Numbered from the stretch's first letter, positions 14,694-17,848 are shown. The stretch is DNA of 64,000 nucleotides from Pelagibacterales bacterium SAG-MED47 (GCA_014653355.1 JACWEO010000001.1:12912-76911); one strand, 5' to 3'. The notes: generated by a model not told the origin, from the sequence alone. Numbers and translations: made by a program.

Positions 14694-16388
14694 ATGAAAC
14701 TAAATGAGATTAACAGTTTAGTAGAACTTTTTTTTATAAAGTATTATGAAAAAAAATCTAAAAAAAGTCAGCCATTTTTAAAATGGTTAAAAACTGAGAA
14801 AAATAATTTTTTAACCTGGGAACAAGTTAAAAATAATATCTCAGTTTTGTCAGAGTATTTGAAAAAAAATTTATCAAAAGGTGATAGATGTATTTTGTTG
14901 TCAGAAAATCGTCCAGAGTGGCTTATATCAGACATAGCAATTATGAATGCTGGAGGAATTACTGTTCCATTGTTTACAACTTATTCTGATAAGGATTACG
15001 AATATATATTAAATGATTGTAAACCCAGTTTGTGTATTGTTTCAAACTATATTCAGTTTAAAAAAATAGAAAAATTTATTTCAAATGAGACAATAGTTTT
15101 ATCAATTGAAAATTTCAGTCAAAAAATTGAAAGTATTGAAAACATTCTAATAAATTCTTCTAAACAAGAAATAAACTTTGAGCATTATAATAAAAAAATT
15201 ACAAGAAGGGATTTAGCTTGCATTATTTATACTTCTGGTACAACTGGCAATCCAAAGGGTGTGATGTTAAGTCATGGAGGAATTTTATCAAATTGTGAGG
15301 GAGCACAAGAAATTTTAGAAACTTTAGTTGAAAAAGATTTACCAGTTTTTTTAACTTGGCTTCCATTGTCTCATTCATATGAACATACAGTTCAATATGT
15401 TCAAATCTTACTTGGGGCAAAAGTTTTTTATGCTGAAAGCTTAGAAAAATTATTGCCCAACATGTTAGTTGCTAATCCCACTATTATGACTGCAGTACCA
15501 AGATTTTATCAGAATTTATATAATAAAATTTCTCTAAATTTTTCAAAACAAAAAGGATTAAAGAAAAAATTGATTGAGAGTACCATTAAACTTGGAAAGA
15601 AAACTTTAAATAAGGAGAAACTAAGTTTTAAAGAGAAGATTATTAATATTTTTTGCGAAATTTTGGTAAGAAAAAAAATCAAAATTCAATTTGGAGGTAA
15701 GTTAAAAGCCTTTGTTTCAGGTGGAGGTGCTTTAGATCAAAAAATTGGGGAATTTTTAAATTCTATAGGTTTACCTACCCTACAAGGATATGGTTTAACA
15801 GAGGCTTCACCAGTTGTAAGCTGTAATATTCCTGAAAATATAAAGATAGAGACTGTTGGACCACCTTTTAAAACAAATAAAATAAAAATCGCTGGAGATG
15901 GAGAAATCTTAGTTAAAGGTGAAAATGTGATGCTTGGTTATTGGAACAAAAAAAAAGAGACAGATAATATTTTAAAAAATGGTTGGTTACATACTGGAGA
16001 TATAGGAGAGATTACGGAAGAAGGAAATTTAAGAATAACTGATAGAAAGAAAGAAATTATCGTTAATCTTGGTGGTGATAATATTTCACCTTCAAAAATT
16101 GAAAATTTGATTTGTCTTAATCAAAAGATCAAACAAAGTTTTGTTTATGGAGATAAAAAAACATATTTAGTTGCTTTGATTGTGGGTGAAAGAGGTGACA
16201 ATGAAAAAAAAATTAAATTTTTTCTTGAAAATTTAAATAAAAGTTTATCTTCAGTTGAAAAAGTTAAGAAATTTAAATTAATTACAGAAGAATTTACAAT
16301 TGAAAATGGAATGTTAACACCAACTTTAAAACTTAAAAGAAAAAAAATCTTAAATAAATATAAAGAAGATTTAGAAAAACTTTATTAA
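14694..16388 (+). CDS. fadD: Long-chain fatty acid-CoA ligase (AMP-binding)
   Basis: IIYTSGTTGNPKG, LPLSHSYE, QGYGLTE, GWLHTGDIG, LTPTLKLKR. Confidence 0.9.
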   Translation: MKLNEINSLVELFFIKYYEKKSKKSQPFLKWLKTEKNNFLTWEQVKNNISVLSEYLKKNLSKGDRCILLSENRPEWLISDIAIMNAGGITVPLFTTYSDKDYEYILNDCKPSLCIVSNYIQFKKIEKFISNETIVLSIENFSQKIESIENILINSSKQEINFEHYNKKITRRDLACIIYTSGTTGNPKGVMLSHGGILSNCEGAQEILETLVEKDLPVFLTWLPLSHSYEHTVQYVQILLGAKVFYAESLEKLLPNMLVANPTIMTAVPRFYQNLYNKISLNFSKQKGLKKKLIESTIKLGKKTLNKEKLSFKEKIINIFCEILVRKKIKIQFGGKLKAFVSGGGALDQKIGEFLNSIGLPTLQGYGLTEASPVVSCNIPENIKIETVGPPFKTNKIKIAGDGEILVKGENVMLGYWNKKKETDNILKNGWLHTGDIGEITEEGNLRITDRKKEIIVNLGGDNISPSKIENLICLNQKIKQSFVYGDKKTYLVALIVGERGDNEKKIKFFLENLNKSLSSVEKVKKFKLITEEFTIENGMLTPTLKLKRKKILNKYKEDLEKLY

Positions 16389-16504
16389 TAAAGTATAATA
16401 TTTGATTATAAAGCGCATAAACATTAACTTTTTTACACTTTAAAATTTTAAAAATTTTTTTATTTTCAATTTTTTTTTTTAAGATTTTAATTTTAATTAA
16501 AGAA

Positions 16505-16533
16505 TTGACATAACGTACATAAAAAAATAAAAA
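16505..16533 (+). promoter_or_regulatory. Putative strong sigma70 promoter (TTGACA-17-TAAAAA) with upstream A/T tracts
   Basis: Perfect -35 at 16505-16510, 17-bp spacer, -10-like at 16528-16533; ~110 bp of A/T tracts upstream (UP-element-like). Confidence 0.6.
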
Positions 16534-16542
16534 TAAGTTAAT

Positions 16543-16563
16543 AACGAATCATTTTGATTCGTT
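16543..16563 (+). repeat. 8-bp perfect inverted repeat AACGAATC-ATTTT-GATTCGTT in the leader of the basic-peptide gene
   Basis: Read directly from the sequence; sits between the predicted start site and the SD. Confidence 0.85.
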
Positions 16564-16584
16564 TAACTAAAAAGGGAGCTAAAG

Positions 16585-16662
16585 ATGCCTAAAAGAAGAA
16601 AAAAAGCAAAGAAGGCTAAGAAAAAAGCTAAGAAAAAAGCTAAGAAAAGAAGAAGAAGATAA
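16585..16662 (+). CDS. 25-aa Lys/Arg/Ala peptide MPKRRKKAKKAKKKAKKKAKKRRRR (absent from the ORF track)
   Basis: SD AAGGGAG ~6 nt upstream, double stop TAATAA, own promoter and terminator, 12-bp tandem repeat GCTAAGAAAAAA. Confidence 0.8.
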   Translation: MPKRRKKAKKAKKKAKKKAKKRRRR

Positions 16663-16682
16663 TAACTTAGTATTCTTTAATT

Positions 16683-16727
16683 AAAACGCTTCTCATAACG
16701 ATATTCGTGTGAGAGGCGTTTTTTTTT
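16683..16727. terminator. Bidirectional intrinsic terminator
   Basis: Stem AAAACGCTTCTCAT / GTGAGAGGCGTTTT (with G-U pairs), 9-T tract on the + strand, TTTT on the - strand; lies directly between the peptide gene and the carD stop. Confidence 0.85.
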
Positions 16728-17565
16728 ATTCTTCTAGAACTTCTTCACTGTCTGAAATAGGTTCTTCATTACTTAAATTAGGTGAAGGATTTTTTGTTAT
16801 TTGTTGTTGAGTGGCAGGTTGTGGACTTAAATTTCTTTTGAGAGCTTTATCTAATTTTTTTTGGGTATCTTCTAATGAAATATTTAATATAATTTGAAAT
16901 TCAGCCAATATTCTTTCATAAGCCTTTTCGAACAATTGTCTTTCACTGTAAGATTGATCAACCATTAAATCGTCACCTTTATTTAAATCTCTTACTACCT
17001 CTGCGAGTTCATAAATTTTACCAGAGGAAATTTTTGCCTCATATTCTTGAGCACGCCTACTCCACATAGATCTTCTTATTTTAGGTTTACTTTTTAGTAT
17101 TGAGATACATTTATTAACTTGATTTATAGTTGCTAAAGCCCGAAGATGTGATTGTTTGTTGACTGGGACCATACCATTAGCTTTATCTTTCTCAAATTTA
17201 ATTACATAGGTTTCAACATCAATTCCACCAATATTAATTTTTTTAAATTCTGTAATCTGACCAACGCCGTGTTTAGGATAAACTACATAATCTTTAATTT
17301 TATATTGTCTTTTTTCTGTGTCTTGTTTTTTGACTTTTTTAATTTCTGGCTTTAATTCATTGCTTTTGGGAATTCTAAGATTATCTGTTTTTGTATCTAA
17401 TTTACTAGTGCTTTTTTTGATTATTTTTTTTGTTAATGATTTCTTGATTTTTGTTACAACTACTTTCTTTGGTTTCTTACTTAGAATTTTTTTTTTTTTA
17501 CTTACTTTTTTTTTTTGTTTTTTAAAGGTTTTCTTTAAAATATTTTTCAAACTTATTTTGCTCAT
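16726..17565 (-). CDS. carD: CarD-family RNA polymerase-binding transcription factor with a Lys-rich N-terminal extension (start uncertain: 17565, 17580 or 17607)
   Basis: [36 protein letters not shown] and [12 protein letters not shown]. There is no in-frame ATG between the fdxA stop and the CarD domain. Confidence 0.9.
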
Positions 17566-17848
17566 CTTTATATTTTTCATGATCCGATGGTGGATCTTTT
17601 TTTTCACTAATATTTGGCCAGATTTCAGAATACTGTTTATTGATTTCTAACCATTTTTCGCTTCCTGACTCAGTATCAGCTTTAATAGCATCAACTGGAC
17701 ACTCTGGCTCACAAACGCCACAATCTATACACTCATCCGGTTTAATTACAAGCATATTTTTACCCTCATAAAAACAATCTACTGGACACACGTCAACACA
17801 ATCCATTAATTTACATTTTATACATTTGTCATTAACTATGTAGGTCAC
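17522..17848 (-). CDS. fdxA: FdxA-family dicluster ferredoxin
   Basis: [21 protein letters not shown] and [12 protein letters not shown]; upstream of carD as in other alphaproteobacteria. Confidence 0.95.

Follow-up and report, generated by a model that had tools for sequence, protein, structure and literature searches.

What does a streamlined genome gain from keeping a spacer of about 330 bp between two genes? Among free-living bacteria SAR11 is the most abundant, and its genome is the standard example of streamlining, so a conserved unit of this size that serves 25 codons must pay its way. The unit considered here lies in a 64,000-nucleotide (nt) stretch of Pelagibacterales bacterium SAG-MED47 (GCA_014653355.1 JACWEO010000001.1:12912-76911), which is called the window throughout and from whose first letter positions are counted. 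The spacer separates an acyl-CoA synthetase-like gene from a convergent CarD/CdnL-like gene and contains a short open reading frame (sORF) for a peptide of 25 amino acids (aa), most of them Lys or Arg. We find that the spacer is a stand-alone gene with a promoter, a 5' stabilising hairpin, a Shine-Dalgarno (SD) sequence, 25 codons, a double stop and a terminator, and the sequence evidence makes it highly probable that the sORF is an expressed protein-coding gene. The reading of its product that we prefer, and to which we give about an even chance, is an intrinsically disordered polycation comparable to a histone H1 tail or a protamine, which would bind and neutralise nucleic acid and whose translation would be gated by an antisense hairpin. 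A literature search returned no description of the gene.

The transcription unit in the spacer

The sequence-only reading of the window had proposed a complete mini transcription unit at this site, and every sequence feature that it listed is present:

16440-16504, plus strand: A/T-tract region 5' of the promoter, resembling an UP element (putative role, from the sequence)
16505-16534, plus strand: promoter-like site, with a -35 TTGACA(T) (TTGACA at 16505-16510), a spacer of 17-18 nt and a -10-like TAAAAAT (16528-16534)
16543-16563, plus strand: 5'-proximal leader hairpin, CGAATC/GATTCG, from RNA folding
16572-16578, plus strand: SD sequence AAGGGAG, 6 nt 5' of the ATG
16585-16665, plus strand: sORF of 25 codons, MPKRRKK...RRRR, with its ATG at 16585 and the double stop TAA TAA
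16666-16678, plus strand: conserved motif CTTAGTATTCTTT of the 3' untranslated region, present in most same-genus loci
16687-16727, plus strand: intrinsic terminator with an 11-bp stem, a 10-nt loop and T9, from folding and a terminator scan
14694-16388, plus strand: upstream neighbour, the acyl-CoA synthetase-like gene, which the sequence-only reading labelled fadD
16726-17607, minus strand: convergent neighbour, the CarD/CdnL-like gene (carD, a label from the same source), with a Lys-rich N-terminal extension

At the promoter, TTGACAT is the same in all 25 aligned genomes, and most of the A-rich -10 block AAAAAAATAAAAAT is conserved too. The equivalents of 16440-16504 in aligned relatives vary in sequence and keep their richness in A/T tracts. 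The leader hairpin retains its stem and varies in its loop across 25 genomes, while the G-U variants (GATTTG) and alternative, longer 3' arms seen in other genera support an RNA hairpin on the plus strand. The SD sequence is exceptional for this genome, in which AGGGAG precedes 2 of 933 long open reading frames (ORFs), GGGAG precedes 6 of 933 and any 4-mer SD core precedes 10%. The ORF itself runs from 16585 to 16662, the double stop occupying 16660-16665, and the predicted peptide is made up of 13 Lys, 6 Arg, 4 Ala, 1 Pro and the initiator Met. The 19 basic and zero acidic residues followed by a double stop that had been proposed are thus confirmed by the sequence, and they give a predicted net charge of about +19.

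Downstream of the ORF, the terminator stem-loop spans 16687-16718 and its T9 spans 16719-16727. The last 2 nt of this T-run also belong to the carD stop codon, and the terminator is shared back to back with the convergent gene. It had been described as the only strong intrinsic terminator of the window, and this holds: a scan that demanded an unbroken stem of 8 bp or more, with 4 or more GC pairs in it and a run of six or more T's behind it, gives exactly one match in the 64 kb and 10 in the whole 1.13 Mb genome. A standard terminator scan missed it because its loop is longer than 8 nt. Between genera the terminator stems differ by double compensatory changes, with the stem base CGC...GCG and the T-run constant, and the RNA fold of 16530-16735 has a z score of -5.3 against shuffled controls. 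In the minimum-free-energy fold, CTTAGTATTCTTT (16666-16678) pairs at 12 of 13 positions with the coding segment AAAGAAGGCTAAG (16608-16620) and encloses the 3' half of the ORF. An Rfam scan of the region gave no family at threshold. Among its weak matches, one to ctRNA_pT181 (29 bits, E = 0.6) was rejected since it is simply the terminator, and an antisense match to RF01814 at 16547-16612 lies across the ribosome-binding site (RBS).

Conservation across the order and coding signal

The whole spacer is 74-93% identical at the DNA level in twenty same-genus genomes. Between fadD and carD, where the sequence-only reading had proposed to look for conservation, the ORF is intact in all 18 same-genus loci that are not cut by a contig end. 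It encodes 22-30 aa in these loci, ATG and SD are invariant, and so is the 15-mer AGGGAGCTAAAGATG that forms the SD context (18/18). A search with this pattern matched 86 of 86 genomes of the window's genus and also eight further genera (g5, g8, g9, g10, g12, g15, g19 and g21). In g15 and g17, where a different SD context occurs, the sORF was located through its synteny with carD. In total, no fewer than ten genera of the family besides the window's own carry the unit. The gene order of fadD, sORF, convergent carD and then fdx is the same in every locus of the family examined. The claim of a stand-alone conserved gene is borne out, as ORF, SD and terminator are kept in relatives and changes between AAA and AAG and within GCN dominate.

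In the sister family, the same position convergent with carD holds an ORF of 40-99 aa that resembles a histone H1 tail. It starts with MEELKVIFAKA, continues with KKKAAP and KRKPAKKK repeats, and ends in a basic C-terminus like that of the family form. It is preceded by a GGGAG SD at the same 6-nt spacing and followed by two terminators. The form found in g17 contains RRKPAKKA and appears to bridge the two kinds, and on these sequences the unit is conserved across the order Pelagibacterales. Length varies by gain and loss of (A/T)KKK units, giving 17-41 aa in the family and up to 99 aa in the sister family.

Beyond the order, the carD neighbourhood of 28 other alphaproteobacterial families, the limit of that search, holds no comparable ORF within about 1.5 kb. 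A profile built from the peptide alignment and run on 121 alphaproteobacterial genomes missed even the gene in the window's own genome and is thus no guide to its distribution. A degenerate pattern scan of about 186,000 species retrieved the SAR11 genes together with unrelated Lys-rich ORFs of other phyla, among them 20-aa ORFs of Planctomycetes and H1-like proteins of more than 100 aa. The planctomycete loci (L118, L171, L185 and L165, including Ca. Kuenenia) carry ORFs of 10-21 aa of the type MAKKKKKAAKKVAKKKKGHG with a GGAG SD, recurrent across genomes. The H1-like Lys/Ala repeat proteins at L128, L132 and L140 (Spirochaetales, Nitrospirota and Bdellovibrionia) are 129-160 aa long and start with MAKKKKK or MPKKKKK. 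As to the neighbouring gene, both families of the order have a CarD lengthened at its N-terminus by a Lys-rich stretch (open frames of 259-326 aa), and the polycationic sORF always adjoins it; in many other alphaproteobacterial families CarD is roughly 165-200 aa long.

Codon usage bears signs of coding as well. Counts were made on 59 distinct nucleotide sequences that encode 43 distinct peptides, mostly of 17-41 aa, with 1477 internal codons in all. These specify 817 Lys, 315 Arg, 255 Ala, 55 Thr, 19 Pro, 8 Gly, 5 Ser and 3 other residues, so that 1474 of 1477 fall on Lys, Arg, Ala, Thr, Pro, Gly or Ser. Codons for Asp, Glu, Asn and Gln each lie one mutation from AAA in this AT-rich genome, yet they were never seen. 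Differences between loci are mainly AAA/AAG, AAA/AGA and GCN changes, together with whole codons gained or lost. The choice among synonymous codons departs from neutrality and avoids long runs of A. AAG makes up 29% of Lys codons in the sORFs as against 13.5% genome-wide, GCT is preferred to GCA, and GCT and ACT are favoured ahead of Lys codons. The mean longest A-run is 7.0, compared with 10.0 +/- 0.18 in sequences whose codons were drawn anew, among synonyms, at genome frequencies, and none of 300 simulations gave a value as low as that observed. A run of 10 A's is found in no sORF sequence, against 56% expected. A translated poly-Lys gene needs to avoid slippery poly-A, and the avoidance of A-runs therefore fits translation, which we infer for the sORF. 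An ORF that failed to be conserved would have spoken against the original proposal; among about 75 loci seen, however, a single copy is frameshifted and read through (L024, in the metagenome-assembled genome G049 of genus g12).

The rhtB hairpin and the translation start

Besides the sORF site, the pattern search brought up another 16-mer, almost identical to it, in most genomes of the genus. Third sites in G106 and G331 were set aside as chance matches that are not sORFs. In the window's genome the second site lies outside the window, at G000:C23:21210-21291 on the plus strand (L051:1511-1592), and is a member of RF01814, scoring 69.5 bits against a gathering score of 55. This family is the rhtB hairpin motif, for which Meyer et al. 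(2009, PMC2704228) gave no function; they noted that its loop is conserved and that a U-tract sometimes occurs. According to that study, about half of the examples have a U-run of 6-9, and the motif also precedes other genes (PMC2704228). Our literature search found no paper that links rhtB to a target or its loop to the RBS of the sORF. The member seen here is a bulged hairpin with a conserved loop that adjoins a LysE-type gene, and its counterpart in the window, which the sequence-only reading had overlooked, is as follows:

16574-16592, plus strand: site complementary to the apex of the rhtB hairpin, with 14 contiguous nt (16574-16587), one mismatch and 4 more

The 13-nt loop of rhtB and one stem base form the exact complement of GGGAGCUAAAGAUG, from the SD through the AUG, on the transcribed strand. 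All eight distinct rhtB hairpins keep a G-U pair in their inner stem, and the LysE-family gene is co-directional; both show the transcribed rhtB strand to be the anti-RBS strand. A search of the whole genome on both strands gave, apart from the rhtB locus, no other complement of at least 13 nt to the hairpin apex. The duplex has an energy of -28.8 kcal/mol, against a mean of -7.1 per window scanned (standard deviation 3.5), and lies about 6 standard deviations beyond the genome mean. Contiguous complementarity of 14-18 nt is present in all 15 genome pairs in which both loci were available, reaching 14 nt where the peptide starts with Met-Pro and 17-18 nt where it starts with Met-Ala, and it often runs on into the 5' arm. 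The two partners also change together: G483 has an RBS with A for G just 5' of the AUG (...AAAAATG) and, in compensation, a loop with U for C at the position that pairs with it (CAUUUUUAG), both partners are shortened at the same end in G262, and a C-to-U change in G081 retains a G-U pair.

A conserved extended -10 box (TGnTATnnT) lies 6-7 nt ahead of the hairpin and places the transcription start at the hairpin foot. The ATG of the LysE-family ORF (PF01810, 84 bits) follows on the same strand 8-16 nt past the hairpin. In the window's genome the hairpin is followed by U7 and then at once by the ATG of a LysE-family gene without an SD of its own, so the hairpin may also act in cis on that gene. 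One copy of rhtB was found in each of the 47 other Pelagibacter genomes searched as well as in the window's genome, and the motif is also present in g19. In the same-genus genome G160, whose peptide has 29 aa, the element sits where it was published for 'Ca. P. ubique' HTCC1062 (PMC2704228). A search for Hfq gave no match in the window's genome, which is about 91% complete, and this is consistent with pairing mediated by the loop.

A different arrangement is found in four of five g15 genomes, where the RBS is GAGGAACGGAGAUGGCU and a different hairpin has an interior that matches the RBS, as copy or as complement, over 16-20 nt. This conserved hairpin (L278, L279, L280 and L317, from G084, G149, G052 and G075) has the stem GCUCAAGAG / CUCUUGAGC and is flanked by a DUF502 gene and a cyclophilin-like gene. 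It escapes the Rfam rhtB model, and its flanking genes have no homology to those of rhtB. One of these genomes, G149 (L032 and L316), carries the sORF in two types that differ in their RBS, the one of Pelagibacter type and the other of g15 type, which suggests a mixed bin or a second copy. Searches for an anti-RBS hairpin in g5, g12, g17, the sister family and three further genomes gave none that was convincing.

The closest parallel to this pairing comes from Chlamydia, where loop 1 of the small RNA IhtA occludes the start codon of hctA, the gene for Hc1 (PMC4355289; see also PMC3469542). As with IhtA, the complement of the region where translation starts is carried in the hairpin loop of a separate RNA. 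The SAR11 pairing covers 14-18 nt over SD and AUG, whereas that of IhtA covers 6-7 nt around the AUG, and the SAR11 RNA is, unlike IhtA, the 5' leader hairpin of a LysE-family gene. By analogy, rhtB would repress translation of the sORF, both the direction and the sign of the regulation between the two RNAs being putative. In the mechanism that we propose, a strong promoter would drive synthesis of the sORF mRNA, which its 5' hairpin and its terminator would stabilise and which would be translated efficiently unless rhtB pairs with it. In Pelagibacter, rhtB would be the bulged hairpin that opens the leader of a LysE-family exporter mRNA, and pairing of its loop from the SD through the AUG of the peptide mRNA should occlude the RBS.

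The peptide and its rival explanations

The peptide stands outside every described protein family, while bacterial H1-like polycations and antisense control of one are already known. Searches of Pfam and NCBIfam with four peptide variants at E values up to 10 matched no family, bS22/AURKAIP1-COX24 included, and a sequence search of the PDB with the peptide, also up to E = 10, matched no chain. The sister-family protein yielded nothing usable in Pfam, NCBIfam or the PDB either, its forms of 84-99 aa giving just one meaningless Pfam match (E = 8.5). Exact look-ups of 11 variants in a collection of 15 billion proteins found none, and the sORF is too short for the protein collections searched. A search for homologous proteins with an 85-aa sister-family form returned two short, unnamed metagenome calls of the same protein and one unrelated match.

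In composition, the nearest comparisons are the C-terminal tail of histone H1, the bacterial H1-like Lys/Ala/Pro repeat proteins such as AlgP, and the chlamydial proteins Hc1 (HctA), controlled by IhtA, and Hc2 (HctB). With the H1 tail the peptide shares its Lys, Ala, Pro and Thr composition and a likely disordered state, and the KKKAAP and KPAKKK repeats of the sister family are of this type. It differs in standing alone, without a globular or other domain, and in a family form that is nearly free of proline. Hc1 and Hc2 are likewise small or repeat-built polycations rich in Lys and Ala, and the Lys-rich repeats of Hc2 vary in copy number between relatives, much as the units of the SAR11 peptide do. 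The product is 17-41 aa long, however, as compared with about 125 aa for Hc1, and it has no sequence homology to either protein. We also know of no developmental cycle in SAR11 of the kind seen in Chlamydia. The sequence-only reading had offered a nucleoid-compacting or a ribosome-binding peptide. The polycation stands, its ribosomal option is weakened by length variation of 17-41 aa, and the nucleoid or H1-like option would fit better. The nucleoid is the most likely target and RNA the alternative, as far as composition suggests binding.

The preference for a disordered polycation under antisense control places second the possibility of a tiny ribosomal protein seated in a pocket of the rRNA, an analogue of bS22, eL41, mS38, bL37 or Thx, which we consider unlikely. 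Such microproteins (bS22 of Mycobacterium, Flavobacterium and Borrelia among them) are 24-33 aa long with 60-75% Lys and Arg, and the 25 aa and 76% of the SAR11 peptide match eL41 and bS22; the very strong promoter, SD and terminator would also suit a ribosomal protein. There is a precedent in the non-annotated Borrelia bS22 of 30 aa and 61% Lys and Arg, which was found only by cryo-electron microscopy; more are predicted, and bS22-type microproteins are often missed by gene callers, as the sORF is (PMC10618245). Borrelia bS22, on the other hand, is nearly invariant, with a one-residue difference across the genus (PMC10618245). Proteins of the bS22, eL41 and Thx type have a fixed length and a conserved sequence, whereas the SAR11 peptide is a variable repeat that drifts by gain and loss of units within one family and reaches 99 aa in the next, that exists as 43 distinct peptides in 59 sequences, and that matches no profile hidden Markov model or PDB sequence. 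It is therefore unlikely to be a fixed part of the ribosome. Bacterial ribosomal-protein genes, moreover, are mostly under autogenous control, which a dedicated antisense RNA would not resemble.

A better ribosomal candidate is found in the same genome. This second polybasic micro-ORF, unrelated to the sORF and outside the window (G000:C6:7082-7162, minus strand; L294:780-863, minus strand), encodes 27 aa starting with MGYPKKHRGRRK and has its own SD and a promoter-like site. It does not vary in length and, although synonymous changes are many, 10 of 12 Pelagibacter loci encode exactly the same peptide. It was found in g15 as well, at 85% identity, and at 78% identity in G388, from one other alphaproteobacterial family, and the peptide has no match in Pfam, NCBIfam or the PDB. 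It looks like an unannotated tiny protein of the ribosomal type. The 27-aa ORF has the conservation pattern of a pocket-bound ribosomal protein and the sORF does not, and for this reason the H1-tail-like polycation is ranked first and the ribosomal protein second.

The remaining alternatives move the function from the peptide to the RNA. LysE-family members are exporters of basic amino acids, and the sORF transcript might be the main actor, opening the rhtB leader hairpin (a terminator in some genomes) to control the exporter, with the ORF reduced largely to a sensor of Lys and Arg supply that works through its translation. The position of the hairpin between its extended -10 box and the LysE-family ATG on the same strand would suit this, as would the U7 that precedes the AUG in the window's genome, the published U-runs, and a peptide that is three-quarters Lys and Arg. 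In several genomes the complementarity reaches into the 5' arm (e.g., 14 nt, one mismatch, 7 nt), as strand invasion needs. Purifying selection on the charge of the peptide and the avoidance of A-runs nevertheless indicate that the product itself matters. The sORF occurs order-wide and rhtB in two genera only, the g15 hairpin has no LysE neighbour, most Pelagibacter rhtB copies recovered have no U-run after the hairpin, and the motif is known to precede other genes as well. We therefore regard this account as rather improbable. Far more so is a reading in which the frame is irrelevant, with the transcript a non-coding RNA or the ORF a product of chance in purine-rich DNA, even though the sequence is of low complexity, its 12-nt repeat units could expand in frame without selection, and a second reading frame of this strand likewise lacks stops across the sORF. 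It would have to accommodate sORF lengths that differ by single codons (22, 23, 25, 26, 27 aa and so on), an invariant ATG and SD at a fixed 6-nt spacing, 1477 codons without an acidic, amide or stop codon although these are one step away, the predominance of AAA/AAG and GCN third-position changes, and no more than the one frameshifted copy. A leader peptide of an attenuator that senses charged Lys- or Arg-tRNA would have the classical layout of a Lys/Arg-only ORF followed by a terminator, but it was rejected because there is no gene on the same strand downstream, carD being convergent and ending inside the T-run. Read-through would yield only RNA antisense to carD, the stop codon lies 21-24 nt 5' of the terminator stem, and no conserved anti-terminator alternative was seen in folds or alignments; we give the attenuator next to no probability.

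Several observations weigh against the polycation under antisense control that we prefer. It is the composition of the peptide that suggests DNA binding, and the Pfam, NCBIfam and PDB sequence searches linked it to neither Hc1 nor Hc2 nor any other family. Two genes of the HU/IHF family are already present in the genome, so the peptide would supplement the ordinary nucleoid proteins, not replace them. Homology between the family and sister-family forms is suggested by position, composition and RBS similarity rather than by alignment statistics. On the RNA side, a mismatch directly 3' of the AUG is uncompensated in the Met-Pro lineages, and the g15 hairpin may act as an anti-RBS RNA on one of its two strands, a candidate only. 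Searches for the rhtB motif in 102 genomes of eleven other genera and in four genomes of the sister family gave no match. Because its range is restricted in this way, RNA control would be a lineage-specific add-on, which cannot explain the conservation of the sORF across the order. The polycation may also be placed within a circuit of two mRNAs, in which the LysE-family leader hairpin pairs with the RBS of a Lys/Arg-only microprotein and would couple the export of basic amino acids, or Lys and Arg status, to a nucleoid-neutralising polycation, a separate anti-RBS hairpin having arisen or diverged in a second genus; this extension is speculative, and we hold it to be doubtful.

A SAR11 cell occupies about 0.01-0.05 cubic micrometres, and should the peptide neutralise or compact nucleic acid, it would bear on how the chromosome is packed in such a small cell. 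The pairing found here gives the rhtB motif, an orphan since 2009, a directly testable function, and it would provide a free-living example of the antisense control of a histone-like polycation that has so far been known from Chlamydia. The sORF is invisible to gene callers, homology searches and tryptic proteomics, and it is therefore likely to be missing from SAR11 annotations, omics tables and models.

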